The position numbers and the translations under genes are program-made. A stretch of 64,000 nt of DNA, taken from contig NW_025963779.1 of the NCBI RefSeq assembly GCF_023055435.1, forward strand, positions 16,430,001 through 16,494,000, in the 5' to 3' direction. The notes beneath the pieces were generated by a model. It saw only the letters and a list, made by a program, of their open reading frames with translations. It searched no databases and was not told the origin of the DNA. Of the stretch, positions 1 through 63,141 are shown piece by piece (position 1 is the first letter of the stretch; each line of letters starts with the position of its first letter). The stretch comes from Haliotis rufescens (lineage: Eukaryota).

Positions 1-1448
1 AGGCTTGCTCATTCCAAAGTGGTTGTCACCTCGGTGACCTCCAAATCCATATATTCTTCCGACTTTGGTTCCAGTTTCACGCAGATGAAGACGAAGACCA
101 CGGCGACAGGTCTTCAAGACAGGTCTTCTCCTGTGTCCGTGCATTCTTGGACATGGGTGTTTGTGAAATCTGTTAAGGCCTTGGAGGTATCGCAAGCGAC
201 GCACGCGTCTTATAGTACGTCGACGATGAATTCTAAACGTAGGTCCTCTTCTGTGGCTTCTGCACATTTTGCCTCTCTGCATGTCACAGCCCGCTTCATT
301 GCATTTTGGCATCACTTCATTAATTTGACCACGCACTCAATACTTTTGGTTATTTCCGAGGTACATAGAAAGGGACTTCCTGGGAAACCTGTCGAATTCA
401 AAATTTGAAGCTTCATCTTCCGAGGTTTCCCTGTTGTCTCTTCCCTCCATCGTCCTCGACTGGCGACGTCGAATGTGGGGTCCGAATACTCTCTGCCATT
501 TGTTTCCATGCGTGGCTCTGTCATTGCTGTTCTTATCGTGTGACTCTGACACATCATCGCTTAATCTCACGCGACGGTTAGGACAACTCTAATATCTATG
601 GAGATTCTTTACATCACGTTTGTTAAGACATCATCCCTCATTCGAACGCTAACATCCAGGCATGTTTCCCGAGACATTCGTGCAACGTACACGACGACGC
701 TGACAGCTGGCAAAGCTGTTATCAGCGCAGTGGCTCTTGGTGTAATGTTCATCTTCAGTCTTATTATCTCGCCTGGACCATCCTCCAAAACAAGGCTCAT
801 TTGTACGACGCCACCTTTTCCCACTGACCGCATGGTGGCCCATGGTGCGTCTACCTGGTCCCTCTTGACCAGCTCGATCACTACAGGATGCTTGAAATCC
901 TCTGCAGCCAGCAAGGAAGGATTTCCTGGCTCCATGACATCCATAATACCAGAGAGGCATAGTGACACCTTCAGTACCCCTGGCGTATCTTGAAGCCCGG
1001 CCTGCTTGAATTGATCACAAATGTGGGTTCAAACAGAGATCGTCTTGTGAGGAATTACTACACTGATGCTCGAGACCTGTCATCATCCGCCTTCTCCAAG
1101 GTCTTCCACATTTCCTGGTAGTCTCATCACGCTTGAAGCGACCATCTTTTTGTATCACCCGTCTTCTCCAACGTTGCCCACAGGAATTCGAAGGAGACGT
1201 ACCATCACTGACATTCTCCTTCTGCAGGCAGTGACGTTCAACTTGCATCACTCGCCTTCCCCTACGTCCCCTACAATCGCTACCTGGAGACGTACAATCG
1301 CTTTCAGCCCCATCACGCTGACAGAGCCCGCCCAGTTCTCTCAGGCGTCGCGTCCCACAGACTCTCGTTGGGGTCACATGCTCCGTAGCTGTATCTTCAT
1401 CAGCTGTAGGGTTTGACCTGTGCCGACGACGACGATGACGCCAGCCGG
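1..1448 (-). pseudogene. Disabled paralogous copy of the large Arg-rich terminal exon of the minus-strand PB1 gene; runs off the left edge of the window
   Basis: Colinear, high-identity match to about 14369-15819. ORF pieces 1015..1581, 649..960 and 337..570 share one frame but end at stops (1015-1017 TGA, 649-651 TAG, 337-339 TGA) where the intact copy has sense codons. Homology ends abruptly at CCAGCCGG (1448), with no upstream exons. Confidence 0.8.
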
Positions 1449-2160
1449 GCATGATGATTGACACATTGTACAAAAACACGCCAACCCCGCCAGAGCCGCG
1501 CTTAGCTAATTTGTTAATACTTTTTCTGATGTTACCAAACCACTTGTAGTTATCTAAATGAAGTACATTATTCCCACGCAAGAAAGTTTCACATATACTA
1601 GTATATAGCTGTATTTTGTTATATTTTTACGAAAATTACTATTTTCGTGATCTAAAAGGTACCACTACAACACTAACGTAGCTTGTTTCAATTTTTGCCA
1701 ATCTGTCTTCAAACTGTATTAAGTTTGATTTAAATTCTGATCTAATATTGTCCATTTCAACCTCAACCGTGCTACTGATTAAGGAAGCAGTCTTCTCTGA
1801 CAATGATATTTCTAATCGCCTCTCTAAGCTGTCCATCCGATGGACGAAAGACTGATTCAAACTCGCGATCTCGGATTTCACAGTGTCAAACATGCGACGC
1901 ATTAAATCGAGAAGTTCGTCATCTCTTCTCACCTTTTATGTGAATCATTGAAACCTTGTTCTGTGAGAGGTCTCTTTCTTGAGTGTCCATCACAGGATCA
2001 CATCGTGCTAAGGGAGACGACTTGTGTTGTCTGGGCGGGTCACATTTTGAATCTCCGCCATTACGTTCTTCACGAAAGATTGACTTTCGTTCATCTCCAG
2101 GGCCACGTGGCAGAGCCGATCGTGCAGGAAAGGAGAACAAAACGTTGTGTGAGCCTTAAG
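1449..2160 (-). mobile_element. Decayed LINE fragment (ORF1-like coiled coil plus start of an APE-type endonuclease)
   Basis: Minus strand about 1449-1595 reads ETFLRGNNVLHLDNYKWFGNIRKS...RGSGGVGVFL, resembling the LINE endonuclease ETWL...RGGGV motifs. ORF 1639..1932 is a heptad-rich coiled coil typical of LINE ORF1. Confidence 0.6.
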
Positions 2161-13889: not shown

Positions 13890-16800
13890 TTACAAATAGG
13901 CCATTCTCAACACCCTATCGCCACCGTGGGTACAGGTGCTTGCCTTGCCTCCCCACGCCTTCATCACAGGTCTTTTTGACCACTGTCCTTGTCCACAGCG
14001 GCTGGCAAATAGCTGTCTTATGCGGAACTGCCTTTTTCTTTCCTTCTGAAGGATTCTTCTCATCAGACACAGTCTCTTCATTTCATGGAAAGTGAGCTTA
14101 AAAGGGGTGTGTGTCCCAACATCTTCAGGGCCGTCACAGGCGTGCTTCATCTGACAGGTCAATCCCTCTTCATCCTTTCCAGAGAAGATGTGCACCCGTC
14201 TGCCAAACCCTCCAGGACAAGCCATTTGACGACCCCAGGATCTGCCCATGACGCAACGAATACTCTTCCTCTCATTATTTCTGCAGCTTGTTCTATTCTC
14301 ACCCATGTTAAATTTGTCAGGGTTTGAAGCATAACATGATGTAACTTGACGGTTGATTGTCTCTCTCAGATGCTGGCCCATTCCAATGTGGTAGGCACCT
14401 CTTTTACCTCCAAATCCATATATTCTTCCAACTTTAGGTCCAGTTCCACGCAGATGAAGACGAAGACCACGGCGGCAGGTCTTCAAGACAGGTCTTCTTC
14501 TGTGTCCGTGCATTCTTGGACATGGGTGTTTATGAAATCTGTTAAGGCCTTGAAGGTATCGCAAGCGACGCATGCGTCTTACAGTACGAAGACGATGAAT
14601 TCTGAACGTAGGTCCTCTTCTATGGCTCCTGCACATTTTGCCTCTCTGCATGTCACAGCCCGCTTCATTGCAATTTGGTATCACTTCATTAATTTGACGA
14701 CGCATCCCATGCCTTCGGTTATTTCCGAGGTATATTGAAAGGGTCTTCCTGGGAAACCTGTTGAACTCCCAGTTTGAAGCTTCATCTTCCGTGGTTTCCC
14801 TGTTGGCTCTTCCCTCCATCGTCCTCCACTGGCGACGTATGCATCGTCTGATGTGGGGTCCGAATGCTCTCTGCCATTTGTTTCTATGCGTTGTTTCCAC
14901 TCTGTCATTGGTGTTCTTATCGAGTGACTCTGACACATCATTGCTAAACCTCACGCGACGTTTAGGACAACTCTCAATTCTATGGAGATTCTTTACGTCA
15001 CGTTTGTTCAGACATCTTCCCTCATTCGAACGCTTACATCCAGGCATGTTTCCCGAGACACTCGTGCAACGAACACGACGACGCTGACAGCTGGCAAAGC
15101 TGTTATCAGCGCAGTGGCTATTGGTGTAATGTTCATCTTCAGTTTTATCATCTCGCCTGGACCATCTTCCAAAACAAGGCTCATTTGTACGACGCCACCT
15201 TTTCCCACTGACCTCATGGTGGCCCATGGTGCGTCTACCTGGTCCGTCTTGACCAGCGCGATCACTACAGGATGCTTGAAATCCTCTGCAGCCAACAGGG
15301 AAGGATTTCCTGGCTCCATGACATCCATAATACCAGAGAGGCATAGTGACACTTTCAGTACCCCTGGCGTATCTTGAAGCCCGGCCTGCTTGCATTGATC
15401 TCCAATGTGGGTTCAAACAGAGATCGTCTTCTTTGGTATCACTACACTGATGCTCGAGTCCTGTCGTCATCCGCCTTATCCAAGGTCTTCCACATTTCCT
15501 GGTAGTCTCATCACGCTGGAGGCGACCATCTTTTTGTATCACCCGCCTTCTCCAACGTTGCCCACAGGAATTCGAAGGAGACGTACCATCATTAACATTC
15601 TCCTTCTGCGGGCAGGGACGTTCTTCTTGCATCACCCGCCTTCTCCATCGTGCCCCCGGAGACGTACTATCACTTTCAGCCCCATCACGCTGACAGAGCC
15701 CGCCCAGTTCTCTCTGGCGTCGCGTCCCCCAGACTTTCGTTGGGGTCACCTGCTCCGTAGCTGTATCTTCATCGGCTGTAGGGTTTGACATGTGCTGACG
15801 TCGACGATGACGCCAGCCGGTCACAGTGCAAGCTTCAGCACCGTTGTGCCCACAAGATGCTTGCAACTGCCATCGGCGACCATTTCTACAGAACTCTCGT
15901 CTGGATCCGCCTGCATCTGAAATACATAACATGTGACTGACTGTACAACTGAAGTCAGGAAAACAAGATGGCAGCTTACTTGAACAGGTCAATCTGGAAA
16001 ACATGTATTATCCAATTTCAGACTTCAGAAATCATGTTTTTCTGCCTGGTAAGTTGACCACCGTTTTATCATCAGTAATATTAAATGCCATCGAAAATGA
16101 CGTAGTTCAGCCATCATACATTTCTATTTTGAAAATACACGTCAATATAAAACGCCACATGACCAATCCGACAACAGAACTCGTTTACAACTCCTTTCGT
16201 CAATTTACAATGATTGCTTATCTAACAATTCTTTTACAATAATTGCCTATCAAACAATTCATTTTACAATAATTGCCTATCTAACAATTCATTTTACAAT
16301 AATTGCCTGTCTAACAATTCTTTTACAATAGTTGCCTATCAAACAATTCATTTGACAATAATTACCTATCTAACAATTTATTTTACAATAATTGCCTATC
16401 AAACAGTTCGTTTTACAATAATTGCCTATCAAACAATTAATTTTACAATAATTGCCTATCAAACAATTCATTTTACAATAATTGCCTATCAAGCAATTCA
16501 TTTTACAATAATTGCCTATTAAACAATTCATTTTACAATAATTGCCTATCAAACAATTTTTTTTACAATAATTGCCTATCAAACAATTCATTTTACAATA
16601 ATGTATAAACTTGGGAGATGACTTACTGCTGTAGTTTCCCCTGACTTGTCCATCAGCAAGGGATGTCATGGCATCGACGTCGCCATCATCTTCCCGTCCC
16701 TGTTGTGGGATCTTCCTGGCCATTCTCATCAGACGTCTGAAGTGACGGGGTTGAACGTCCTTCTACAAGAAGAACGACGTCTAGGGTTAATTTTAATAAT

Positions 16801-18034
16801 AACTCTGTATGACATTTAGGGTTAATTTAGTACTGACATACAAGTATATGAACAGAACGAGAAAGATCTATAAAATGTTCAGACCTGTTGATGTCAAAGG
16901 ATTAATAGTTGAGCTTATTCAGCCAAGAAAACGTTTTTCTAAAATGGTATATGGTCATTAACTACAAAAGAAATATCTGAACTTACCGTCTCCATCATTC
17001 TGTGTCCTCCAGCGTCTGCTCCTTTATCAAAAACACGAGATCTGCGCCAAGTATTAGCGTCAAGGGAAGTAACTCCTTCGGCTCTGTTTGTCACGTCGTG
17101 CTCTGTCAGGCACAGAAACAAAGTCTCAATACAGGGACACTATTCAGGTCACACTGTGTACACACGTTTTCGGTATGTGGCCCTGTGCAGACGGGCTAGT
17201 TCGTTTTGCCGCTCGCATAATCTACGCATTTATCTTATTCACCGTAAAAGCTCAGAGGCCATATCGCACCCCGACATCATTTCATAGTTACTTGAACATA
17301 TCAAATTCTTTTTAAAGAACAATTTACATTGAACAGTAAAACGGATATTCCTCAGAAGCTAGTAATTGAACACACTAGGCAATATATAAATCTATTTTGT
17401 ACTCTTTATGTTAATTGGAAATTATCTCACCTCTGACGGCGATTTTCATAACGGAATCATTGGCACTGCTAAGAGCTTCTTTGAGCTCTTCCTCTGAGGA
17501 GAAAGTTATTGAATCTCCATCTTCATCTGTTAAGAAAAAACAACCAGTATGTTTTAAAGCATGTACTACTGTCTGTCTGTCTGTTTTATTTTTCAATTCA
17601 TGTGTAAGAAAATATTTGCATGTTTTCATGGCGATGATAACAAAGCGGTTCACAACGTTTTTTTTAAACATTAAGTAGAAAATAAGCCAATATATATTAA
17701 CATATGTCAGTAATGACACGACGAAATACATCCAACCAATGACCAATTGGACATACGTTAAAAAGGTATATATTTTACGAATTATTCCTTAAAGTAGTTA
17801 TTTTTCGCACTTAGTCCAACGACCTCGTTGTATATTCATGTAGTAATAAGGGAAAAGTATACCTGTCCAGCACAGTTTGAATGTGTCCGCATCAAGGTGT
17901 GGAAACACTTGCATCACCTTCTCGTTGATGAAGGTGTAACTAAGGGCGGCGTTATCGGGAACAGGGAAACGTCGGACCTCAGGAGTCGCGTTGCCCTGTG
18001 GCTCATAAATCATCTTTATCACCAAGGATTGCAT
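13890..18034 (-). CDS. SQSTM1/p62-like PB1-domain protein with a very long Arg-rich tail; no ZZ or UBA seen; 5 exons, about 848 aa
   Basis: Exons 18034-17863 (MQSLVIK...PEVRRF...KLCWT), 17526-17431 (DEDGDSITFSSEEELKEAL), 17102-16987, 16762-16627 (KDVQPRHFRRLMRM) and 15916-13890 (2-kb open frame). Introns are GT-AG with phases 1,1,0,1. The PB1 Lys7, EVRRF and acidic OPCA motif match p62. Confidence 0.8.
16186..16601. repeat. 30-bp minisatellite (TTTTACAATAATTGCCTATCAAACAATTCA), about 14 copies, in intron 4 of the minus PB1 gene
   Basis: Direct tandem periodicity. It accounts for the NYCKMNCLIG repeat in ORF 16370..16729. Confidence 0.95.
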
Positions 18035-18235
18035 CTTGGGATTTCTCTGGACAGGAAATGTCGTACAGCAGTGGGAGAACTGAAGGATTCTCACGTGTAG
18101 CAATCTGTATTCGCTATTTAGACCGGTCTTATTTCTTTAGCAGACGACAATTGAGTCTTTGTTCAGCAGCTGCCGTAGTAACTTCAGTATAGCTGTATAG
18201 AGCGTGCCGGCGGAGTGATTTTGTCAGTAAAACTA

Positions 18236-18850
18236 GGGGTTTATATACCAGAAAATGAGTGATGTCAATTACTATTAATAGAATCAAACCGTTCTGAAAC
18301 GTTCTCGTGACCGGTTTAGGGCCGTCTCAAACTATTTCGGACCGGTTGCGTGAGAATCACGGGACCCGGGTCGATTGACAAAGTCACGTGACGTGTGAGC
18401 TCCGTTCCGAATGGTTCTTGGGCCGGACCAGTTCACATTCCTTGGCTCGGAGCCAACACTCAACTTAAATCTACATGAAGTTATATACACAGCTAAAGCA
18501 ACATACATGAACGTTCATTAAATGCAAACGTTTGAAATAATGCTTGTGCGTCAACAGATTGATTAACACGCCTTTAACTGTCTCGGGTTAGGTTTTAATT
18601 GATATTTATAACAAGGCAGTTGTACATCACAACCGGTTGATTTACTTGACACTCAGCCAAGATTGTGACGTCACGTGCACTGTCGTTTTTGATGCGTAGG
18701 TGTCGCGGAAAGTACTATCCACGTGACCATGACTCATCGACGCTCGTGATCCTGATGCAACCGGTCTGAAACGTGCCAGCTCCGTTCTCGGAACGTTTTC
18801 GAACGTTCGATTCTATTTCCAGAAATTACAACATACATCGGGTATAAAAG
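18236..18850. promoter_or_regulatory. Shared divergent promoter region with mirrored TATA, HSE-like and E-box modules
   Basis: TATA on the minus strand at about 18240-18247 and TATAAAAG on the plus strand at 18843-18850. HSE-like GAAcgTTTtcGAAcgTTC at 18791-18808, with a mirror copy at about 18281-18304. GTCACGTGAC at 18383-18392. TGACGTCA overlapping CACGTG at 18666-18677. CACGTGAC plus TGACTCA at 18720-18736. AACCGGTT at 18631-18638. Confidence 0.7.
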
Positions 18851-19017
18851 CCCGGGTTTGGGTTTGCTGACAGAATCAAGCGACTCTACCGCTACCTGCT
18901 GACGTGAAATCAAGACAAAAAGAAGCCTATAGAAGTTCTATCGTCTGCTGAAAAGATATTCCACATTCAAACAACTGTTGAAACTTATCGTCACTGAGAA
19001 TCAGCCCGAACAACACG

Positions 19018-22000
19018 ATGCAGTCTGTGGTTGTCAAAGTGTTTTATGAGCGCGAGGGGAGAGGAAGACCCGAGGTCCGGCGTTTCCCTGGTCCCAAGGA
19101 CGCCGCCCCTACACACACCTTCGTCCACGACAAGGTGACCCAGGTGTTCAAACAACTAGAGGCGGGGACATTCAACATGTACTGGAAAGGTGAGTTTTTC
19201 TTTTTATTTGAAAGTATTTGTGTTAATCGTGTTCATAATAACAACATCTATGATTATAATGAACAGTATAGAGTTACTGATGGATTCAGGGTTAGAATAT
19301 AACCTTAGGCAGCGTATGCTGGTCGTAAGAGGCAACTGAATGAATCGGGTGGTCGGGATCGGCGACTTCACTGATTGATTGTTATCATACCCCGACGGCG
19401 TAGAGCATTGCTCACAATAGTGATCACTGGTTGTCTGGTCCAAACTCGATGATGTACAGGCCGCCGCCATAGCTGGAGTATTGCTGAGTGCGGCGTTAGA
19501 TATCAAACAGTCACTGAACATGAATGTATTTATGAAGTATATCAGGGTTGGTTTCACTGTATTTCATTGAGTCTACACTGAACCATAATGCTTTGGGACG
19601 ACTCATTGCGTTGTGAAACAACATTCACTCACATATTCAGTATAATGTTCAAAGCGATTGTTATTCCTGTATCCTAATGATACCTTTAAAAGGTCAACTT
19701 GGATCTTTGCGTGTCATGTACCCCTACGGAGTGGGGTGTTCATGATATCAATCACTTGTTAGTCTTGTCCAGACCCGATTTTTCACCGAAACCTTCATGT
19801 ATCGGCAATATTCAATTTGTTTCTACTGCGCCGTTAAACATTACTCACGCACCCTCTGTACCTTTCAAATAGACTTAAAGTCATGTATTGATACTAAATA
19901 GTTCAAACATTCTCTTTTCATAGTGTATATAATTTTAAAAACATTTAATCGATATTTCATCAATAATTAGCGTAATGAAAATGGGTTTGAAAATATTGGC
20001 GTAAATTATTCTGCCCAGGACTATCTATTAAATGACGTAGATATACATGTTGGACGTATATGACAAAGCCCCGTTCATCCGCACGGTTCCATTCCTTGTA
20101 GTATCACAATTGTCGGATTAACATGTCATTGAAGTTACATCCTTTGAATATGTGTACACGTAATCCCCGATCTTCCGGAATACGGTTTTCCAGACTAACG
20201 GGGTTTCACTGTATAAAGCGTCAGACAATGTCAAAGTTAATATCATTTCTGGATAGTCAGTCAGCCGTCAGATTTTAATTCTATTTTTAACCATCTCACT
20301 TGTCTTTCGAGTTCGCGACAGTTGTCGCAGCATGTGTGTGTAGTTTCTGTTGCTTATTCGTACTCAAAGTTCACGTTCATTATAAACACGTAAGCTAACA
20401 TAAGCGAGCTATTGTTTCAGATGGTGAAGGCGACTTTGTGACGTGCTCCACGGAACAGGAGATGGACGAGGCCCTCTCTTCCGTCAAGGATTCCGTCCTC
20501 AGAATCTACATCCGAGGTACAAACGAACATTTTCTGTTCAATATAAATATAATACACAGTCGTGATTTACTGCTGATGGCAATCGCAGCCTGGGATACAT
20601 TCAAATTATCTTGATATATTGATATTTATGATCAATACAATCAACAGACTCGCTTGGATAGAGCGTACAAATGAATAACGTTGTGTATGTAGAGATTGTA
20701 TCGGGGCTTCAGTAGCTCTTTATTCAGTTCTACGTGCCCCAGCTTAAACGTTGACCAGATATTTCTTTTTACTTTGATACTGTTGACGACTGTGGTGATT
20801 GTGTGATTGTTGTTGTTGATGATGATAATGATCATGATGGGCATTAGTAGTCCTTTGCAGAATGAGTCAGATGTATATTTTAAGATTCAAGTACTGCCAT
20901 ATCAAACTAATCTTTTGATGAATGATCTTTTTGCCAGATGTCTCTCCTGCCGTATCCGAGGAGGATGAATGGGACTTTGACCGGAGGATGCAGGGGTGGG
21001 GCCGAGGGTGGGGCAGGATTGGTGGCAAGCGAGGTGCAGGCAGAATGGTGAGTTGCTAGTAATCATGACTAATTAAAAAGATAGCTCGAATACCTCTCGA
21101 AAAAAACCCTCGAAGTATCATTTTGACCGAAGTCACCGTACCATCTTCTCGTGTACCTTTATTTATTCAATATGCGCTCTTCTCATGGTATTTGATCAAT
21201 TTACACATTATTTTGTAGCCAATGGAAGGAATGGCCCCTCCTCACTTTCTCCGATGGATGAAGCGCATGAAACGCTGGAAGAAGAAGAATCAGTGCCATG
21301 AGTTAAGGACTGAAGGGGAGGCCACTCCCGGTGAAGAGTCCGACAAAACAGCAGATGGTGGCGCCCAAGCGGAAACTACGAACGATGCACCTGAGGTCAC
21401 AGAGGGCACATCTGATAGTAATGGTAGGTATCCTATCACACTCTCTTACAACAACATACAATCACTAATGTCCACTTTACACAAACAAGTTGATCCATGT
21501 GTGTCTGTGGTCCGTCTCCTACAGTTGGAGGGACAAGGTAGACCGAGTGTGAAGTGATTGAGTGTGGGTTTTTTGCCACTTTGGTAAAGACAGTTATGTC
21601 ACTACACCATAGCAAGAGACACCAACATGGGTGTTGGTCATTTTGCCCATTTAGTACCCTGTTCTTTGACATGGCGAGCAGTTGCTTTAACCAGTAGGCT
21701 ATCCCACTGCCTATTCCCTGTTTGGATATAACCGAGGTTGGCGAGATGATCGTGCACGTGTCCCCTGCATGGGTCTTAGTACCATTGTCCGACGTCCGTT
21801 CACAGTAATGTTGACGGTCAGGCAAATTAGTTCATCAGTGCTACATGGTCGTGGTCCAGTGAGCCATGTCTTCAAAAAAATCGTTTCATTTAGTACTGAC
21901 TAAAGGTTTTGTGTTACTCCCAATGGGTAGCGGCGGAGTAGGCTTGTGGGTTCAGGTACAGCATTCGCCCGTCAAGCCAAGTCCCAGATTCAGTTCCCAA

Positions 22001-22718
22001 CATGGGTCAAATGTCCAAAGCCCATTTCTGGTGTCACCCTCGTGATATTGCGTAAATCCATATACATGATGGTTGTGTCTTCTACCTTGGCCAGTATTGT
22101 TTGACCGTGTTCTTGTACTTGTATTTGACAGATACAGAAATGAAGGCAGATGGCCAAAGAGGAGCGAGAAAGTGTGGCAAAGGAAAGAAGGGAAGCCGAA
22201 AATGTCATAATCACGATCAACACCATGTTGAAGACCCCCAGACCAAAGAGGATGGAATCTTCGGATCCTCGGATGAGGACATGCCTCCGCCATTTCTCGG
22301 CCACCCTGGTATGTTTGCAGGTGGCCCAATGCAGTTCTGGGGCATGATGGGAACGCATCCTTATGCCTGGGGTGAAGGTTGTTGGAAACGAAGAGGATGG
22401 GGGAGACGTGGTGGTCGTGGTGGTCGTGGAGGCTGCAAGAGGAGGGGGGAACACTTCAGTGAGACGGAACCTTGGAACGACATGGGTTTTGCCGGATGGG
22501 AAGATGGACGAGGTGACCCAAGAGAGGGCGACAGAGGTCGATTCAGGGGTCACCCTCGAGGTGAAGGTCATGGTCAGGCACAGTGTCCTCGCAGACGCTG
22601 CCGCCGTCACAATGAGGCTGATGAGCCAATGGAAGCCTGCATAGAAGAAATGCGCAACGTCAAGGCCACTGACGACGTCATCACGCTTGATGTTGGGGAC
22701 GAGGCGCCCAAGATGTAG
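19018..22718 (+). CDS. SQSTM1/p62-like PB1-domain protein with an RGG/Gly-Arg-rich tail; no ZZ or UBA seen; 5 exons, about 389 aa
   Basis: Exons 19018-19189, 20421-20516, 20938-21047, 21219-21423 and 22132-22718. Introns are GT-AG with phases 1,1,0,1. The first two exons have the same lengths (172 and 96 nt) as in the minus-strand paralog. Motifs MQSVVVK..PEVRRF and YWK/DGEGDFVTCSTEQEMDEAL. AATAAA at 23122. Confidence 0.85.
19285..19510 (+). mobile_element. Family D SINE-like repeat, diverged
   Basis: GTCGTAAGAGGCAACT...GCTGGAGTATTGCTGAGTGCGGCGTT matches the other family D copies. Confidence 0.7.
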
Positions 22719-30445: not shown

Positions 30446-32348
30446 GGAGTATCGGATACTCTAAGTTGCACATCCGGGTGCTTCATGTATGATCCACGTA
30501 CCAAATAATAACAGGACTGTAGCCCAATTCAGTTGGACAGTTTCTATTAGCTTTTTCACAGTCTTCACAATATTCTCGGCCAAATAATGAATGAGTCATA
30601 CATTAGGATATTTTCAGTTCCTTAATGGCATGCCACGAAAAATAAGTCACGGGATCACGTCAATTATGGAAGTAGCTTTAAAAACTTAATGGGTGTGTGC
30701 ATAATCTTTCATGGGTCCGTTATTCTTGACACAATGACTTTGTGTGTTAAACTTTAACATGAAGTACCTGCATAAGAACAATGTAAAATATAATATAAAT
30801 CTAAATTGGGAGAATGATGCTTTAAAACGCTATGCTTTACGATCTATATAAATACAATACATGCCATCTGCTTTCTCTAAGTATATTTTTTTTAAATATT
30901 TAAAAAACAGCAATTCATAATTGTTGTCACTTCATCGCGTCCATTCATTAAAAATGAATCGATCACTTCTGTTAAAAACATCAGCAGTAAAGTTGTGTGA
31001 TTCATGAAGATTAGTGACTGTTTAAAGTCGAAACTTATCTTAGTGTTGTTCATTGAGGCCAGCGACAACCCCGGCTACGAGAAGTCATCGCAGGATAGTC
31101 ATAAGACCCCACAGAGCCATTTTCGTGAGTATTTGGAATCTATTACACTGGACTTGAAGAAATGTGGACCGTTACTTACTTGTACATGCCAAACTGATTG
31201 TTGTATATGGCATTTACAAGCCTAAACGTGTATTTACACATATTTATGTAGATATACATTATATATATTTTGTTCAAAATGAACAACCTTGTTAATTTAA
31301 AAGGTAATACTAGGATATCTAGAGAATTGTGTGACGATAAAAGAAAAGTGAGTTATACACATGCTGCTGCATAGCATCATTATATTTTCACGTGACTGTT
31401 TTTAATATAAAATATTTTGAATATGCTATGTCTGATATCGTGACATTATGACAATATGCACAGTTTTAAATGTACACCGTACAATGCATGGCTTATTGTA
31501 CCATTTTGACAACACTGGTAGTATTTGATGATAAAACATATTGTTATCAGACGGATGATTATGCTTAACAATATTCTTGAAATTTAGAGTGTACAATAAG
31601 GAGTTACAGTGTTACAATAATGTTACGGTGTTGTAATTGTCGTGGATGGGAGTCCTTCAAATCCAATGCGAAAATGAACACGTTCAGTGGGAAGTGAAGG
31701 TGAACTGCCTCACAAACACAATCGGCATCCTATTTGCCCAGACCAGTACAGGAAACTGAGCTCAGGAGGTTGTGATACTGATTGGAAGGTTCTGGTTGAT
31801 TTAATAGAATAGTTTCCAAAATAAAGATGGATTATAATCAGTTATGCTTCTGTAAATATAAGCGACAAACCTCATTTCGTCATCATAAGAAATCTCTAGA
31901 GTCCATTCTACGACTATAAATGTATAAATCAGCATGTGTTTATCAACCACTGCCTAACAGTGATGATACCAGGTGTTCGCGAAAAGGGCAGCCTATCTTG
32001 GTGGTACATTTGCTGGACCACGCAATATACCTCTCATTATACCTCCTCTTGAAAAGAATCCATAAATCCCTGATAATTGAACATATGTTTTCTTATCTTG
32101 GAAGTTCAAATAATCCAAAAAGAAATTACAATGTATAAAGTGCTTGGTGAAATAGCCTATTACCTTTCTATAGGGATGTCCAAGCAAGAGAAGCATTCTA
32201 GTTATCACAACAAGTGTCTAGATAAGTGGGTTTCGACTGTACATACTAAAAGTAGTTTTGCACTGATCAACACAAACCATTAGTCTAAACATTTTCACAT
32301 TACGTACGGCAGCAAAACATTCCTTGTTTGTAATTTCAGACTGTGAAA

Positions 32349-33578
32349 ATGGGATTGATGGGTTTTCGGTTCTTGTTGGCAATGCTAACAACAGCTGCAG
32401 TTGCTGACGCATATCAACCAAAAGGGAAGGGTTATAGCATTCCACGGGTTCACCCAAAGGGATCACATCCAGTTCACCCGAAAGGAAATTTCGTCGCACC
32501 CGATACTCCCAACGTGAAAGAGCCTTTACTTCCTCAACTTCCACTGTATTTAAACCCAAAGGGTTCATTTCTCCATGACCACAGACGTTTAAGACCTGTA
32601 AATCCTAAAGGAGCTATTTTACCTTCAAGACCCTACTTTCCACGTTACAACCTGCGAGGATCCTACCTTCCTGCCCGCCCTAAAGGTCAGCTGGAACCAC
32701 ACACTTCAATAGGATTACATCGACCCTTAAATCCTAAAGGTTCACTAGCTCAGCCGACACAACCCTTGCATCCAAAAGGTACCCTAGACATGCCGAAATG
32801 GAAACAAACTTCATCGACACAGACGAAAAAGTCCTCCTCTGCAGAATACAAAGAAGAAACTTGGACCAAAAAGAAAGACACAAATACTGTTTACCCCAAT
32901 TATCCCTCTGACCCATCGGCCAACAAGCCAACCGTTTCTCCTGCGGACAAGAAGAAGCAAACGCACCCTTCCAACCAACACAATCCATGGGTCAATAGCA
33001 AAACTAACCCCACTAAATCCAATCAACAAACAAATGAACCTGCTGGACAAGTGAAGGATCTTAATAGCCAAGATCAACGTCAAAACCCATCTGTAGACCC
33101 GACTAACCATGGTCAACAAGGAAACAGTATTGATACAATTGGACAAAACTCAAACAACCAAGACCAAGGTCTGCCGCCAAGTCAACCTGGAAGTTGGCAA
33201 CATACAAACCCATCCACCAATGACCACATCCCTCGTGACACGTGGCAAGTGGTAGACCCATCAACTCAAGGCCAAAATCCATCTGACCCTTGGCAGACTC
33301 AAGGTCAGCCTCAAAATCCATCTGACCCTTGGCAGACACAAGTTCAGCCTCAAAATCCATCTGACCCTTGGCAGACACAAAACCAACCTGACACGTGGCA
33401 AGTGGTAGACCCAACAACCCATGGCCATAATCCATCTGACCCTTGGCAGACACAAAGCCAACCTGACACATGGCAAGGGGTAGACCCATCAACCCATGGT
33501 CAACCTCAAAATCCATCTGACCCTTGGTCACCAAGTGGTCGCCAACAGACCGAAATACACAATGCAATAGCTGGTTAA
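32349..33578 (+). CDS. Secreted Pro/Gln-rich repeat protein, paralog 1 (8 PKG motifs, 5 NPSDPW repeats), 409 aa
   Basis: Acceptor TTTCAG ends at 32339 and the first ATG is at 32349 (the ORF track start at 32343 is GTG). Signal peptide MGLMGFRFLLAMLTTAAVADA. A conserved paralog starts at 47222. AATAAA near 34007. Confidence 0.85.
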   Translation: MGLMGFRFLLAMLTTAAVADAYQPKGKGYSIPRVHPKGSHPVHPKGNFVAPDTPNVKEPLLPQLPLYLNPKGSFLHDHRRLRPVNPKGAILPSRPYFPRYNLRGSYLPARPKGQLEPHTSIGLHRPLNPKGSLAQPTQPLHPKGTLDMPKWKQTSSTQTKKSSSAEYKEETWTKKKDTNTVYPNYPSDPSANKPTVSPADKKKQTHPSNQHNPWVNSKTNPTKSNQQTNEPAGQVKDLNSQDQRQNPSVDPTNHGQQGNSIDTIGQNSNNQDQGLPPSQPGSWQHTNPSTNDHIPRDTWQVVDPSTQGQNPSDPWQTQGQPQNPSDPWQTQVQPQNPSDPWQTQNQPDTWQVVDPTTHGHNPSDPWQTQSQPDTWQGVDPSTHGQPQNPSDPWSPSGRQQTEIHNAIAG

Positions 33579-46620: not shown

Positions 46621-47221
46621 TATACCTAAAGCTTATAATAATAGTTAAACGTCTTGGCGAAATTCCCTTGTTTTCATTTTGCCTTTACAGAAATTCCGAT
46701 TTTTATGCATAAGAAAAGGTCCTGAACTGTTTTGACATAATTGAAAATGGTTCTTTTCTGTGATTGCAGATTCAAGCAGATCCTTTGATGTTCTTAGAAT
46801 CCACATGGTATTGCTTGCACTTGTCTCAAACATTTTCTCTGAATATATAAAAAAAACTTCCTTTTTGTATTCGTCACTTACTGTTGACTCCTTGAGACAG
46901 GTACATTTCCTGGACCAAACAATATCCCTCTCATTATACCTTGAAAATAATCCATAAATCCATGATAATTTAACATATGTTGGATTTTGACATAATCCAA
47001 AAAGAAATTTCAATTTATTAACTGCTTGGCTAAAGAGACTACTACTTCTGTCCTAGCAAGTGTAGTATTCTAGTTAGCATATTAATTGTCCGGATAAGCG
47101 AGGTTCGACTGTAGATACTAAAAGTAGTTTTACTCTGATCAACCACAAGCCATTAGTCTATAAATTTTAACATTACGTACGGCAGCAAACCATTCTTTGT
47201 TTGTAATTTCAGTTCGTGAAA

Positions 47222-48247
47222 ATGGGATTGATGGGTTTTCGATTATTGTTGGCAATGCTAACAACAGCTGCAGTTGCTGACGCATATCAACCAAAAGGAA
47301 AGGGTTATAGCATTCTACGGGTTCACCCAAAGGGATCACTTCCAGTTCACCCAAAGGGAGATATCGTCGCAATTAACAATACTCGTCACTTGGAGAAGCC
47401 CTTACTTCCTCAGCTTCCACTGCATTTAAACCCAAAGGGTTCATTTCTCCATGGTCACAGACGTTTAACACCTGTCAACCCAACAGGAGCTATATTACCT
47501 TCAAGACCTTACTCACCACGTTACAATCTGCGAGGGTCCTACCCGCCTGTGCGTCCTAAAGGTCAGCTAGAACCAAACACCCCACTAGGATTACATCAAC
47601 CTTTGTACCCTAATGGTCCCCGAGCTCTGCCAACTCAACATTTGCATCCTAAAAGTACCCCAGCCCAGCCGCTTCAAGATACCCGAGACATGTCGATATT
47701 GAAACAAACCTCATCGACACAGATGAAAACTGCCTACTCTACAGAAAACAAAAACAAAACTTGGAATAAAAAGAAAGAAACAAATATTGTTTACCCCAAT
47801 TATCCTTCTGACCCATCGGCAAACAAATCAACCGTTTCTCCTTGGGACCAGAAGAAGCAAACGCACCCGTCCAACCAACACAATCCATTGGTCAATAGCC
47901 AAAATATCCCCACAGCGCCAAATCAACAAACAAATCCGTCTGAACCTGCTGGACAAGTGAAGGATCTTAATAGCCAAGATCAACGTCAAAGCCGTTATGT
48001 ACAACGTGTTAATCTGAATAACCATGGCCAACAAGGAAACCGTATTGTTCCCCGGCTTGCGGTTGGACAAAACCCAAACTATCAAGACCAAGGTGTGCCT
48101 CCAAGTCGACCTGGAGGTTGGCAATTGACAAACCCTTCCACCTATGACCAGTTCCCTTCTGACACGTGGCAAGTGGTGGAGCCATCACCTCAAGGCCAAA
48201 ATCCATCTGACCCTTGGTTATCAAGCCCAAAACACGCAATCCAATAG
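47222..48247 (+). CDS. Secreted Pro/Gln-rich repeat protein, paralog 2 (5 PKG motifs, 1 NPSDPW), 341 aa
   Basis: Acceptor TTTCAG ends at 47212 and ATG is at 47222. The signal peptide is nearly identical to paralog 1. The ORF is intact. AATAAA near 48665. Confidence 0.85.
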   Translation: MGLMGFRLLLAMLTTAAVADAYQPKGKGYSILRVHPKGSLPVHPKGDIVAINNTRHLEKPLLPQLPLHLNPKGSFLHGHRRLTPVNPTGAILPSRPYSPRYNLRGSYPPVRPKGQLEPNTPLGLHQPLYPNGPRALPTQHLHPKSTPAQPLQDTRDMSILKQTSSTQMKTAYSTENKNKTWNKKKETNIVYPNYPSDPSANKSTVSPWDQKKQTHPSNQHNPLVNSQNIPTAPNQQTNPSEPAGQVKDLNSQDQRQSRYVQRVNLNNHGQQGNRIVPRLAVGQNPNYQDQGVPPSRPGGWQLTNPSTYDQFPSDTWQVVEPSPQGQNPSDPWLSSPKHAIQ

Positions 48248-50904: not shown

Positions 50905-52122
50905 GTAAGTAATTAGTAAAACTAACTTGAAATAATGCCGAAAAACATGTCTACGTAACTGTTTTCCTTTGACATTGACAGCGACATCAATGAATTACCT
51001 GTAGAAAGTGTGGAAATTTGTCAAAAGGGTTTATTAACTTATATTTCTTTTCAATTGTTATCTGATACATTTATGAGCTTACGAGCTGTAAATTGATGAC
51101 TAAAGAATTCGACAGGTTAATGGCTTGTTCTGAAAGCTGATTGAAATGTGTATTTCACATTTCAAAGTTTTAAAGACTTGCCTCAATAAGATTCATACGA
51201 TGAATAAAGTTACCATGAATTATTAAACATTTCCAAATTTACAATTTTCTGAAAAACATAACAGTAAGACAATTTTCATTTTAATACTTGAAGATAACGC
51301 CTGATTGATATAGGGTAGGGGAATACAGGTTTGTAAGTATATATTTACATCATGACATTGAAGTACAATGTAGGTTTGAAAACAAGAAATATACTTGATG
51401 TAATCGTATTATTTGTGTATGTCATTATTTATATTCAAAATATATCTTACTGCACTTAGGTCTCGTTTCTTGACAGTATTGTATATTAAATGATTGGTTA
51501 GATATGCTTCAGAACTATTTGAAAGTATGGATGAAATTACATATTATAGTCCTCTCCATTTGACAAAGAACACGAAATAACGCGATTATTGAACAAGTCA
51601 TTCCGGCTCTCAGGAAGACTTACTTACAGAAATGACAAATCTTGGACAGTGCGCTTTTCAAGTTATATCCATTTTGCTGGTAATAAACATCATCATACAA
51701 TTTTGATCACGTGGGTACAATCCGAGTACGGTCACGTTTTTCCTATAATTCGTGCTAGTACGTACAACGCGAATGTATGTGTGTGCGTGCGTATTTTTGC
51801 CTTTGCTTATGTTGTATTTGCGTAAGATGTAAATTATGTAGTAAACGTGTTATCACATTTCAGAAATGCTGATGCACCTTCTCAACATTTAAAACTGCCT
51901 AATTTATATCCAACGAAGTATAGAGTCCATCCCAGTTTAGAGGATGTTGGGGTGACTGGATAGGGTTGTTTCAGAAGACTGTGTTGCATTATCTTTCTTC
52001 GTTTTTTAAATTAATTGTTCACACCATTCCAAAACAACCGATATTGGTGCCAAATTCAGATGTATTTAAAATAGCTTTCCAAATTTATATCGAATTTGTA
52101 CATTTCTTTAATTTCAGCCGAG

Positions 52123-54624
52123 ATGAGCAGAATGGTAAACCGTTTCCTCGTTCTTGCAGTACTGGTTTCGAGTGCCTGTGCAACACGAATCGTTAGTCTG
52201 CCTAAAGGAGTCTTATTTCGGACTGGGACAACTGGAAATGGTAGAATGATGGCATTACCCACCGTAGGACCAATACATCAAGACCACCTAGCTCCAATTC
52301 AAAGAGCTGGAGACACTGTTCCTTCTACTCCGACTGGATCAATGATGGTATCACCAAGCAGAGAATCACGTGTGGTGAGGACAGGAGGTCCAGGGGCAGT
52401 TTCTTCCATTCCCTCCCAGTCTCCTTTACCAACATATTCTACTGGCGCCATTCAACCAATGACCGCAGTACCTTCCACAATGAGTTTCTCTCAGTTATTT
52501 GCTTCTCAACATACTGCCACCAGACCGTCTTTCTTTCATCAAGCTGCAAGTGGTTCATTTCAACCAAGACTATTTCAGCCTCCTGTAACAGGTCCGTATC
52601 AACCACCTGCCTTCCCACCACCTGTAACCGCTTCGTTTCATCCAACATTCTTTCAACCATCAGTATCTGGTTCGATTCAACCAGCGGCCTTCAAACAACC
52701 TGCGTCCGGTTCTTTTCAACCAGATTTTTTTCCATTTGTATTTGGTTCCTTTCAACCAACCATCTACCAACCAGCAGTACCTGGCTTATTGCAACTAGCT
52801 ACTCAACCAACTGGGACTGGCTTGTTTCAACCATTTACTGAACCAAATACAACCCCAAACATGTTTCAGCCTGTGACTCCGGCACTAACCTTAAGTGGAT
52901 CGTTACCTCAAACCAGTATTTGGCCCTGGAATCCTGCACCAAATCTACCTCTATCACCTGTCACTGGAATCGAGTTTCCGAAACAAACGCTTCTGACGAG
53001 CCTTAATCCACGCACTGGACGACTAGATATGACCCAACAACTCGGCCTATTCCCGCAACCGATCAAGATGGATCAGTTTCAACTGCAACATCCATATGTC
53101 CTGCTGCAACCAATGAACTCAGTACAAAATATTCAGACCAAGTTAACAAATCCTACCAAACAGCTAATCCTACCTGAACCTAGTTTTCCCCTAACCACAG
53201 CTGATCTATTTGAACCGAAAACCCCATCTGATTCAACACTGACAGTAGTCAATGCAACAGCACTTACCCCTTCTAACCCTGTACACCCTTCTTTAACTAA
53301 CCCATTTCAACCTGACACTGTATTAATCAATTCGTTGCAAACACAGACCCAACTTGGTCAAGTGCAACCAATTAACCCAAACGACAAAGGTCATACAAGA
53401 CTAGCATCTGACCCCAGGCCGACAATGAACACACCAAATCCTAGTAAACCGCAGGCCCCACTTGACAGTGTAATGCCCTCCCCGACAGAAAGTCAGTTTC
53501 AGCCAGCAAACCCGCCTTACCAAGGCTTTACGACGGTCAAAGAAGGCAAATTGCAATCCCAAACTACAAATGGCCAAAGAGGAACTGTTCAACCAAAAAC
53601 TACACTTGACGCTAATGTGCAATGGACGCCATTCGACCCAGTGTACGCACAAACCAAATCAGATTCTTTGCCACCAATAAGTCAGGATCATATCTCATCT
53701 GATCCATTATTGTCACACAACGCTATAGACCTTAGTCATCCACCAAGCCCATCTCTCAAGGGGAAACCTATAATGCAAGAAAACAAAATTCCGTTGCCAC
53801 ACTATAAGGAAAGTATGACTACCGTGGACAGTTTGATACATCAGATCACGTTAAATCAAATTGAGCCATTACATCCTCAATTACATTCTGACCCATTATT
53901 ACATCTAACTAAGGCTGCCCCAAGTCAAATACAAGAGGCATCAGGGCGGCCGCAGCCTAGTTCTTCAAAAGAAGGTCAGTCGCAAATCATTTCTGACTCC
54001 AGACAGATGTTGACTACAAATCAGCTGCAACCACAAAACCCTTTTGATAGTTTGTCTGGCATGTCCATAGCGGACCCAAGTCTACCACAAAGTCCATCTG
54101 ATTCAATCATGTCCATACCCCCATTAAATCAACTTCAACGGCTAGACCCATCTGACCCCTGGTTGACTATCACATATGAAGCACAAAACCCAGCAAAACG
54201 CAAGCAACAGCTCAATTATTTGGACCCTACGCTCCCTGTGACCAATTTAGAACCACTAAAGCCTATTATCACATCTGACCCTGGACCACTAGCAACCATG
54301 GCAGGATCACACCAGCCATCAAACACGTCTGACACGTCTTCATCTATGAACTCAATCAACCAAGCTCTTACGCAAATCGCATCTGAACCTGGACCAAATA
54401 TGACTACGTCGAACACACAAGATCCCCTTTCACCTGTGCCAGACTTGACCATAACATATCCGAGCCAAGTACAAAACCCGTCAGCACCTACGAACTCGAA
54501 CAATCCACAAATCCCCGGTGACTGGCTAACTGCACTTAATAGACGAACACCACAATATTGGATCAATCAAATACCAACTACACACTCTAATGCTCCACAA
54601 GGAATCCAGAGCGGCCCTGTATAG
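52123..54624 (+). CDS. Secreted Pro/Gln/Thr/Ser-rich (mucin- or matrix-like) protein, 833 aa
   Basis: Acceptor TTTCAG ends at 52117 and ATG is at 52123. Signal peptide MSRMVNRFLVLAVLVSSACA. The open frame is 2.5 kb, with 13-aa GSFQP repeats and SDP motifs. AATAAA at 55045. Confidence 0.88.
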   Translation: MSRMVNRFLVLAVLVSSACATRIVSLPKGVLFRTGTTGNGRMMALPTVGPIHQDHLAPIQRAGDTVPSTPTGSMMVSPSRESRVVRTGGPGAVSSIPSQSPLPTYSTGAIQPMTAVPSTMSFSQLFASQHTATRPSFFHQAASGSFQPRLFQPPVTGPYQPPAFPPPVTASFHPTFFQPSVSGSIQPAAFKQPASGSFQPDFFPFVFGSFQPTIYQPAVPGLLQLATQPTGTGLFQPFTEPNTTPNMFQPVTPALTLSGSLPQTSIWPWNPAPNLPLSPVTGIEFPKQTLLTSLNPRTGRLDMTQQLGLFPQPIKMDQFQLQHPYVLLQPMNSVQNIQTKLTNPTKQLILPEPSFPLTTADLFEPKTPSDSTLTVVNATALTPSNPVHPSLTNPFQPDTVLINSLQTQTQLGQVQPINPNDKGHTRLASDPRPTMNTPNPSKPQAPLDSVMPSPTESQFQPANPPYQGFTTVKEGKLQSQTTNGQRGTVQPKTTLDANVQWTPFDPVYAQTKSDSLPPISQDHISSDPLLSHNAIDLSHPPSPSLKGKPIMQENKIPLPHYKESMTTVDSLIHQITLNQIEPLHPQLHSDPLLHLTKAAPSQIQEASGRPQPSSSKEGQSQIISDSRQMLTTNQLQPQNPFDSLSGMSIADPSLPQSPSDSIMSIPPLNQLQRLDPSDPWLTITYEAQNPAKRKQQLNYLDPTLPVTNLEPLKPIITSDPGPLATMAGSHQPSNTSDTSSSMNSINQALTQIASEPGPNMTTSNTQDPLSPVPDLTITYPSQVQNPSAPTNSNNPQIPGDWLTALNRRTPQYWINQIPTTHSNAPQGIQSGPV

Positions 54625-60723: not shown

Positions 60724-61510
60724 TCAGCAAAAATCTACAAGAAATAAAGACAAGAGAATGTTTTCTCTAAATATATAGGACGTTTTCTCTAATTGACCAG
60801 CGGGCGTTTTCACGGGCGGACGTTTTCTACAGTTCCCAACGCAACGTTGCCATGTCTGCCATGTTACCCGGCCAAAGGATTCATTTATTAGCTTTTCAAC
60901 ACCCCGCAATTTAAACGTTGTGTTCAATCGTCCAACGTCACCTTTGGCGATACCCCACATCAACTCTTTTGGGTTCAGATCGCAGTGGAAATGGGGAAGT
61001 CGTAAGACGGCGTTACCTTGACCTTTGATGTGATTGTCAACCATATATACGGGCTCAGATTTGATGATTTCATAGAGTTGTTGTTTTGTAGCCTTGGAAG
61101 GAAAGGTCATATTAATCCGTTGCAGCCACGTCACCAAATCTCCTTTAAGGCTATTAGACATTGGGGCATTGCTGTCTGGATCCTGCATACTGTGATACGG
61201 TTCATTGTCCATGATACTAAGGGACTTGGCAGGAAAATCAGGGACCAATTTATTTTTCACCCACTCCAGAAACACCTTGCCGTTCATTTCTGTGTGGTAG
61301 TCCCTGTTGTCCTTGGCCTTGTCTCGAAAGACGAGGTCACAACCTGGGAGGAAAGCCTGACTAGCACAGCCAGCATGGAGAACGATAAGTTTTTCACCTT
61401 TTGCCATTGGTAACTTTCTCCCAGACTAATTACAGTCCCCACTGGGTACCCACCGACTGCTGGCTGTGTGAGAGGCATTGACCCACGTCTAATCTAGGAA
61501 AACGGACTCC
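60724..61510 (-). mobile_element. Decayed IS630-Tc1-mariner transposase with a long D-to-E spacer (DD80E, Sailor-like)
   Basis: LD*TWVN near 61475-61498 (DETWVN with a stop), then LIVLHAG, DYHTEMNG, IMDNEPYHS and VLRLPHFHCDLNPKELMW. Manual count gives 80 residues between the second D and the E. Confidence 0.8.
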
Positions 61511-62019
61511 TGTCATTCTTAACGTCTCCGCTTGATGGTTCGAGGATCTTTTGGTATCTACATTCAAATGTATGTGAAAGTCGCCATAGCTTGTATTTTG
61601 AAACAATTCATATTCATGTTCATATTCAAGGTATTTCTTGAAATCATACAATCGACTCTGCTGTTAGCTGATTTTTCCTGTGAATATGGAAAGGGTTTTG
61701 TCGCTTTTATTTTATTCAAGAGTCTTAGAGGCATATACATATATCATTTTCTGAATGCAGTTTACCAATTGCACGTCTGACGTGATTTTTGTTTCTCAAA
61801 AACTGTCTAAGTTATCCCCTCTACATGGTTTTGATATGTTCCCGTCGATGGACAACAGTTTCTGCCACGTTGTAACTTAATGGTCCAGTGATTTTAGTGT
61901 TTACAGTCGCTTTCGTAATTAACCTATCACTGAAATCAATTTATCGATGTCAGAACTTTTATCAAGTTGAACCAGATCTTAACCATTAACCTTTTTCCGT
62001 TTAGGACAAACATTTCACA

Positions 62020-63141
62020 ATGGGTCCTGTCCTCTTTACTCTATGGCTCTTTCTGATGACGTTGTTGCCATGCCCCATGACCATGTTTCATGCAACTGAT
62101 CAACAAAGAAACTGCACATTTTGCGCTCCCCTTCCACCTCAGGAATGGTTAGGTATTGAGGATAACAGAGGACTGATGAGAAGCAACATATTACCAAGAC
62201 AAACTCAATGGGTTCAATATGTAAACAGAGCCAACCAGAAACCCCGACGTGTGCACCGTCAAACTGGATTTATAAGAGGAACAGAAATACCGAAAGTCCA
62301 GAAGAGACCCTTTGTTACCAATGGGAAATTTGTTTCCAGACTGGTCAACCCTTCGCGTTCTGTATCCAGTGGTATCGTAAATAGTATCACAAATCCAAGG
62401 AATCGTTTTAGTTTTAGAAACCAAGCCCGATCTAAAACTCAAAAGAAGGCAGTGCCAAAAAATATTCTGAACCGAATTTCAGATCTTATCAATCCCCGCA
62501 GAAGACAGTCAATACATTCTCAGCCATCAAACCGTCGAGGTATTCAACGCAAGACCAAATCCCAAAACATCCGTACCTCAATTTCAGACCTTATCAATCC
62601 CCGCAGAAGACAGTCAAGACCTTCTCAGCCACCAAACCTTCGAGGTATTCAACGCAAGACCAAATCCCAAAACATCCTAAACTCAATTTCAGACCTTATC
62701 AATCCCCGCAGAAGACTGCTAAGACCTTCTCAGCCACCAAACCTTCGTGGTATTCAACGCAAGACCGAATCTAAACACAATCGAAAATCAATTTCAAATC
62801 GTGCTAATCAATACAGAGGGCAGTCGATGCCTTCTCTGCCAGGATACGTTCGTGGTATTCAACGCAAAACCGGGTCCAATAACATCCGACAACCAATTCC
62901 AAATCGTGCTAATCCACGCAGAAGACAGTCAAGACCTTCTCAACCAGCATACCTCCGTAGTATTCAACGCAAGACTAAGTCCAAAAACATCCGGAAGCCA
63001 ATATCAGATCGTGATTATCCACACAGAGGAGAGTCGATGCCTTCTCTGCAAGGATACGTTCGTGCTATACAAAGTATATCCGTATCCCCAAACAACCGAA
63101 ACTCAATTCAGACCTGTACAATCCACGCCTGGGACATATAA
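62020..63141 (+). CDS. Secreted highly basic Arg/Ser/Asn/Gln-rich protein with about 6 tandem 35-aa repeats, 373 aa
   Basis: Acceptor TTTAG ends at 62004, and the start context is ACAATGG. Hydrophobic leader MGPVLFTLWLFLMTLLPCP. A 105-bp repeat period (62476, 62581, 62686, 62791, 62896, 63001) stays in frame. Confidence 0.85.
   Translation: MGPVLFTLWLFLMTLLPCPMTMFHATDQQRNCTFCAPLPPQEWLGIEDNRGLMRSNILPRQTQWVQYVNRANQKPRRVHRQTGFIRGTEIPKVQKRPFVTNGKFVSRLVNPSRSVSSGIVNSITNPRNRFSFRNQARSKTQKKAVPKNILNRISDLINPRRRQSIHSQPSNRRGIQRKTKSQNIRTSISDLINPRRRQSRPSQPPNLRGIQRKTKSQNILNSISDLINPRRRLLRPSQPPNLRGIQRKTESKHNRKSISNRANQYRGQSMPSLPGYVRGIQRKTGSNNIRQPIPNRANPRRRQSRPSQPAYLRSIQRKTKSKNIRKPISDRDYPHRGESMPSLQGYVRAIQSISVSPNNRNSIQTCTIHAWDI

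Follow-up and report, generated by a model that had tools for sequence, protein, structure and literature searches.

Divergent heat-shock gene pairs have a head-to-head, inverted layout. Classical bidirectional promoters are TATA-poor, coincide with CpG islands and lie between non-homologous genes. Heat-shock elements (HSEs) follow a consensus of three or more alternating nGAAn units near a TATA box, AP-1 and CRE sites have the consensus sequences TGACTCA and TGACGTCA, and the core of CLEAR elements is also bound by other bHLH-zip factors.

Among the described systems, the autophagy receptor SQSTM1/p62 (Ref(2)P) is closest to the genes reported here. Human SQSTM1 is described as having a promoter HSE and being upregulated by HSF1 (PMC9179435); a further source links HSF1 to p62 phosphorylation, in passages that show no SQSTM1 promoter element (PMC5240838). 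CLEAR-type GTCACGTGAC elements are reported within about 200 bp of the start in promoters of the MiT/TFE network (PMC10626434), and the Grainyhead consensus is given as AACCGGTT (PMC5829564). In molluscs, sqstm1 is reported to be induced by copper or niclosamide (PMC8696127, PMC4599737), heated mussels are cited as having lower p62 levels (in PMC12838483), and the abalone Haliotis diversicolor has a functional HSF1/HSE system (PMC7685655, PMC6337134), in which HSF1 was knocked down in haemocytes to study hsp genes (PMC7685655). None of these stress papers concerns the genes L and R described below. In their arrangement, these genes resemble the hsp-16.1/hsp-16.48 pair of C. elegans and the hsp70 87A pair of Drosophila, head-to-head paralogs with HSE and TATA boxes in which the pair itself is duplicated. 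In C. elegans, the second pair is hsp-16.11/hsp-16.49 (PMC4788107).

We analyzed 64,000 nucleotides of the Haliotis rufescens genome (contig NW_025963779.1, positions 16,430,001 to 16,494,000; hereafter the window, whose own numbering we use). It contains two divergent genes, L on the minus strand and R on the plus strand, whose ATGs are 983 bp apart and which are spliced p62/SQSTM1 paralogs that keep the PB1 domain and lack the ZZ domain, the LIR motif and the UBA domain. In gene L, the coding part of exon 1 (17863..18034, ATG at 18034) encodes the N-terminal half of PB1 and exon 2 (17431..17526) its C-terminal half with the acidic motif DEDGD, as judged by Pfam (PB1, E 8.4e-06), contig joints and PDB matches of the ortholog P0174. 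Exon 3 (16987..17102, 116 nt) is the counterpart of the 230-nt ZZ exon of the canonical gene p62-B, its zinc ligands absent, and exon 4 (16627..16762) retains a remnant of the p62 post-ZZ helix, according to contig joints and alignment. The terminal exon 5 (13890..15916; open reading frame, contig joint 15916/16627) contributes a long Arg/Cys-rich tail, so that the protein of 848 residues carries after its PB1 domain a basic region of about 700 residues with a pI of 10.9. Intron 4 of this gene contains a tandem array with a unit of about 30 bp (16200-16600).

Gene R encodes 389 residues, starting in exon 1 (19018..19189, ATG at 19018). Exon 2 (20421..20516; Pfam, joints, PDB) encodes the C-terminal half of PB1, with the acidic motif altered to DGEGD. 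Contig joints and alignment define exon 3 (20938..21047), which measures 110 nt and has the ZZ core deleted, and exon 4 (21219..21423), which encodes the post-ZZ helix PPHF-RWMKR as in p62-B. The terminal exon 5 (22132..22718; joints, Pfam) is Gly/Arg-rich with three RGG motifs, and has neither LIR nor UBA. The protein is identical to P0153, the product of LOC124149601 of H. rufescens, which is annotated as 'uncharacterized'. All eight predicted introns of L and R were seen as contig joints, each in at least two of four sequencing runs; the RNA nature of these runs was guessed, not being on record, and depth was not used for ranking genes.

The relationship to p62 is apparent at several levels. 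PB1 scores above the Pfam cut-off in R and L orthologs, all nine PDB matches of R are p62, and the best matches of the L ortholog are likewise p62 PB1 domains. Within PB1, Lys7 and Arg21-Arg22 are invariant, and the acidic motif of L is that of p62. Exons 1 and 2 of both genes equal those of p62-B in length and phase, and the first four exons follow its phases. What follows PB1 in p62 is missing: Pfam detects no ZZ domain in the L and R proteins or their orthologs P0001-P0004, and neither Pfam nor alignment reveals a C-terminal UBA in L or R, the UBA exon being absent. The LIR consensus pattern, acidic-[WFY]xx[LIV], is present in p62-B and without a match in L or R. The tails of L and R belong to no Pfam family, and the ESM Atlas gave no usable match for that of L. 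The two proteins are derived from p62 but do not qualify as p62 receptors, from which they also differ in their head-to-head arrangement and in the long basic tail of L.

Among the 38 proteins scanned, the best of 152, six had neither ZZ nor UBA, namely four Haliotis L/R orthologs, a PB1-MBD protein and one short unnamed record. Orthologs of both genes occur in H. asinina, in H. rubra (with adjacent locus numbers) and in H. cracherodii (two of each). Among the relatives searched, they were found only in Haliotis, where the gene L protein is 53-68% identical between species, and the pair is apparently specific to abalones. Literature searches, including with four locus identifiers, turned up no account of these genes, although supplementary tables of abalone heat-stress studies may list them.

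Elsewhere in the window, two paralogous open reading frames (32334-33578 and 47207-48247) with a hydrophobic N-terminus, HPKG-type and QNPSDPW repeats and no Pfam family look by eye like secreted matrix-like proteins. Two long frames with Pro/Gln/Ser/Thr-rich and Arg-rich repeats and hydrophobic N-termini (52075-54624 and 62005-63141) likewise belong to no Pfam family, and 60724-61425 has a weak, below cut-off match to a DDE_3 transposase.

Genome-wide, we found seven p62-type first exons: those of A, B and C (contig C583), which carry ZZ and UBA, those of L and R, and those of a sibling pair, L' and R'. Two of the canonical genes, A and C, lie in tandem at C583:6919828-6939886; the promoter of p62-A has a CCGGAAG site and lacks the module described below, and that of p62-C has two E-boxes, AP-1 and CRE sites and no strict HSE. 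The sibling pair lies 42 kb upstream of L and R, in a segment of about 22 kb that is an inverted duplicate with 87-96% identity (G000:C1:16401319-16426235, corresponding to window 1471-23377). Its reading frames are apparently intact, and its exons keep their splice edges and in-frame lengths, allowing for offsets of 1-2 nt in the mapped edges. The two spacer versions in the DNA-type runs X15 and X17 and the two gene copies in H. cracherodii speak for a real duplication. Near the inversion center, window 1-1450 together with G000:C1:16429727-16430000 contains a third, broken copy of the last exon of L with in-frame stops. A PB1 tree of 36 rows unites L and R in one clade (support 97/87), whose long branches lie near A and B; the wider group of A, B, L and R has weak support (77/97) and takes in two unrelated long rows. 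The initial annotation had proposed that the pair arose by inverted duplication, and the shared exon layout and phases, the common clade and a promoter module traceable to p62-B (see below) support this for a p62-type gene together with its promoter.

The promoters of L and R are mirror images of each other. Aligning the reverse complement of 18150-18550 with 18550-18950 gives a local score of 106, compared with a maximum of 47 among 1000 composition-matched resampled controls and with 31 for the same segments in direct orientation. The homology covers about 175 bp per arm, with 113 of 148 paired bases identical, and runs unbroken from the E-box to just past the TATA box; it is a single stretch and not two islands. 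By contrast, no significant L-R alignment was obtained for any of the four introns, the 5' UTR, the spacer halves or exon 5. The mirror symmetry itself is thus real, and the initial observation is borne out in part. All six motif strings that it quoted are found where it placed them; its block at 18791 and the reverse complement of 18278-18304 share 23 of 26 bases, allowing one gap, and 18757-18771 shares 14 of 15 with that of 18335-18349. It is also correct that both blocks lie at similar distances from a TATA box, the HSE-like block at -52 (right) and -57 (left) and ACCGGT at -83 and -99, with an additional left copy at -68. Its view that the surrounding sequence had diverged does not hold, given the continuous homology, and the quoted blocks are not significantly more conserved than the bases between them, as they match the third paralog at 42 of 58 positions, against 21 of 39 in between (p=0.08).

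In the left arm, on the minus strand, the module begins upstream with a perfect CLEAR-type palindrome, GTCACGTGAC (18383..18392), at its distal edge, 143 bp above the TATA box and unchanged in the sibling copy. It is followed by a CGTGATTCT element (18353..18361), which the initial annotation had not mentioned and which L, R and p62-B all retain, and by two Grainyhead/CP2-like ACCGGT sites (18310 and 18341, within 18309..18349). The proximal one occupies the same position as in p62-B, and the distal one is altered in run X15 (18344 G>A). The HSE-like array of this arm (18278..18305) is degenerate, reading GAA-TTT-GAA, and is followed by the TATA box TATATAAA (18240..18247), whose GGTATATAAACC context is identical at p62-B. 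In the right arm, on the plus strand, an E-box and an AP-1 site form the composite CACGTG-N4-TGACTCA (18720..18736), common to p62-B, with the E-box 123 bp above TATA. This E-box is the right-arm counterpart of the CLEAR element; it reads CCACGTGAC and is altered in the sibling copy (18725 G>T). String and module comparison identifies a CGTGATCCT element and a CAACCGGTC site (18745..18766), upstream of an HSE-like array of four alternating units with one mismatch (18790..18809) and a TATAAAA box (18843..18849). Of the motifs said to be preserved on both arms, the E-box, ACCGGT and the HSE-like frame occur on both, whereas AP-1 and CRE are confined to the right, neither TGACTCA nor TGACGTCA being found on the left arm. 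The conserved Grainyhead-like sites read AACCGGTC, matching the consensus at seven of eight positions.

The same module precedes canonical p62-B (PB1-ZZ-UBA), which lies on another contig. Its order there is TCACGTG, CCATGACTCA, CGTGATTCT, CAACCGGTC, a four-unit HSE-like array and GGTATATAAACC, so that E-box, AP-1 (in the pair on the right arm), CGTGAT, ACCGGT, HSE-like array and TATA are common to p62-B and the pair. Alignment to the p62-B promoter scores 66 for R and 49 for L, and none of 500 resampled controls exceeded either, whereas the p62-A promoter shows no significant homology (13 and 26 of 500 controls as high). A genome search with the right module returned two matches, itself and its sibling, at a stringency too high to detect p62-B. 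L, R and p62-B all preserve the frame GAAC..T..GAAC, and neither sibling copy shows a change in it. The combination of ACCGGT and HSE occurs six times in 1.33 Gb, at L, R, L', R', p62-B and a sestrin gene, and the control gave one match. As its pattern was loosened, and a pattern for the HSE of R and p62-B written, after p62-B had been seen, p62-B matches partly by construction and the result shows rarity, not an independent prediction. The sestrin site (L068, G000:C246:2159495), the sole composite match outside p62 genes, is separated by about 700 bp from an exon of sestrin (Pfam PA26, E 4.8e-23); sestrin is a stress gene, and the match may be due to chance. The fourth genome-wide match of the R/p62-B HSE pattern (L059) has no recognizable gene within 3 kb. 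The E-box/AP-1 composite alone is common, with 74 genome matches against 39 in the control, and is informative only because of where it stands at R, p62-B and p62-C.

A module shared by inverted repeats need not reflect selection: gene conversion could have homogenized the arms irrespective of their binding sites. Compared with the sibling pair, the modules carry 8 substitutions in 327 positions (2.4%), the introns 308 in 3354 (9.2%; p=4e-6 against the modules) and the spacer 26 in 321 (8.1%; p=0.001). This low divergence, together with an L-R homology that outlasts that of introns and spacer, speaks for the constraint that had been proposed. However, the 5' UTRs and exon 1 diverge by 2.1-4.1%, as little as the modules, so that local conversion could mimic selection, and X15 and X17 contain a single contig for the left proximal region and two versions of the spacer. 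Against this, the L-R similarity ends at the module edges, and p62-B also retains the module on its other contig. L and R moreover share different features with unlinked p62-B, R the AP-1 site and the fourth HSE unit, L the proximal ACCGGT and the TATA context; recent conversion between L and R would have erased these differences, which fit a separate descent of each arm from a single ancestral promoter. PB1 identity among L, R and B is only 48-52%, and fourfold-degenerate sites agree at 13 of 24 positions between L and R and at 6 of 22 and 8 of 23 in the remaining pairs. We consider conversion a highly improbable explanation. As far as sequence comparison can tell, the region is an ancestral p62 promoter inherited twice, giving two back-to-back TATA promoters and not one shared element.

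The central spacer (18393..18719), whose halves do not align to each other, bears on the idea of a single true bidirectional promoter, in which palindromes in the middle (CLEAR, CRE, E-box) would serve both genes and one set of factors would fire both starts. The predicted starts (near 18217 on the minus strand and 18873 on the plus strand) are about 650 bp apart, within the 1 kb typical of classical bidirectional promoters, the TATA boxes about 600 bp, CLEAR and CRE are palindromic, and the spacer is crossed by contigs of run X1, in one case over its whole length, and by low-depth contigs of X2. Yet each arm has a complete module with its own TATA box, and the spacer diverges like the introns. 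Of its motifs, the CRE TGACGTCA at 18666 is kept in the sibling copy, but two others, which the initial annotation had quoted, are not. The perfect Grainyhead site AACCGGTT at 18631 lacks a counterpart on the other arm and does not survive in the sibling, and in TGACGTCACGTG the E-box half corresponds to a private stretch of 6 bp at 18672 that is missing from the sibling and from all four covering runs (X1, X2, X15, X17). Unlike classical bidirectional promoters, the locus combines two TATA boxes, homologous genes, a symmetry derived from duplication and a neutral-looking spacer. The earlier interpretation is supported as to inverted duplication and constraint, and several of the motifs that it quoted are not conserved. 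The arms look like separate promoters, each with its TATA box; we regard a single bidirectional element as very unlikely. The X1 and X2 contigs spanning 18377-18777, from runs guessed to be RNA, possibly reflect upstream antisense transcription or DNA carry-over. One contig of X2, an RNA-type run, has its first base at 18873, which lies 30 nt downstream of the right TATA box, and others start at 18904 (X10) and 18917 (X13). As contigs cannot show transcription starts, these positions hint only weakly at that of R, and the left contig ends at 18149, 18171 and 18306 do not fix that of L.

For the regulation of the two genes, we compared their HSEs with those of intronless hsp70 genes in a strict scan, which requires four units with at most one mismatch or three perfect units. 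It is passed by R, by p62-B and by three of four hsp70 promoters, against a background of three four-unit and three three-unit matches in 173,333 bases. The left arm fails, so that the HSE claimed for both arms is substantiated on the right only. ACCGGT and E-box are absent from all four hsp70 promoters. Three of them have the CRE TGACGTCA in TGTGACGTCAC context upstream of TATA (L060-L062); it precedes the hsp70 match by about 270-330 bp and in two cases adjoins an HSE; at 18666, the CRE may therefore matter more than the E-box reading. We favor, with a probability of about 65%, the interpretation that each module copy drives its own gene under heat or protein-damage stress, as two inherited p62 promoters. 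Co-induction of L and R by heat or lysosomal stress appears plausible, on asymmetric evidence: a strong HSE-like array on the right and a perfect CLEAR element on the left.

Alternatively, the module could be functional but tissue-specific or constitutive, for instance epithelial through Grainyhead and E-box factors, with the HSE a decaying carry-over at least on the left and no co-induction. The failing left HSE and the lack of AP-1 and CRE on that arm agree with this, as does the prominence of ACCGGT, the most repeated element of the region (four in 615 bp against 0.06 expected) and one foreign to the hsp70 promoters. Spliced L and R contigs also occur in runs of several studies with unstated treatment, and gene L evolves fast. 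The conserved GAAC..T..GAAC frame and a right array that passes the same scan as hsp70 promoters argue against it, and we deem it unlikely, if still worth considering.

Under the favored interpretation of two inherited stress promoters, a p62-B-type gene would have been copied with about 250 bp of promoter and would then have lost ZZ and UBA. Before the sampled Haliotis species diverged, an inverted duplication would have doubled the truncated gene; the module would have been retained by selection, and the whole pair would later have been duplicated again. Judging by motif shape, HSF would act on the array of GAA/TTC units 50-60 bp upstream of TATA, and the E-box would be bound by a MiT/TFE or USF-type factor, the right-arm AP-1 site by a bZIP factor and ACCGGT by a Grainyhead/CP2-type factor. 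The arms are predicted to differ, R being more heat-driven and L more E-box-driven. By analogy, the locus would work like a duplicated divergent stress-gene pair. It differs from the known pairs in that L and R are truncated autophagy-receptor paralogs with a full, separate module per arm, and its heat response is a prediction.

The L and R proteins would work through PB1 contacts and not as cargo receptors. More speculatively, and with low confidence, they could be stress-switched p62 decoys: PB1-only proteins that are induced via the parental promoter module and co-polymerize with p62 filaments, their Arg/Gly- or Arg/Cys-rich tails replacing the ubiquitin- and LC3-binding ends, so that damaged proteins or RNA would be held in condensates and not passed to autophagy. 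If so, abalones would possess a built-in tuner of p62 bodies that is undescribed in other animals. Together, the five copies provide a natural footprint of an invertebrate p62 promoter, with the conserved CGTGAT element and the pairing of ACCGGT with the HSE, and so mark sites for mutation. It also exposes an uncharacterized abalone gene pair that has the polymerizing domain and the control region of p62 and none of its receptor parts. If induced by heat, these genes would be heat-tolerance candidates for abalones, farmed as well as threatened, and would offer a natural experiment on the role of a PB1-only p62.
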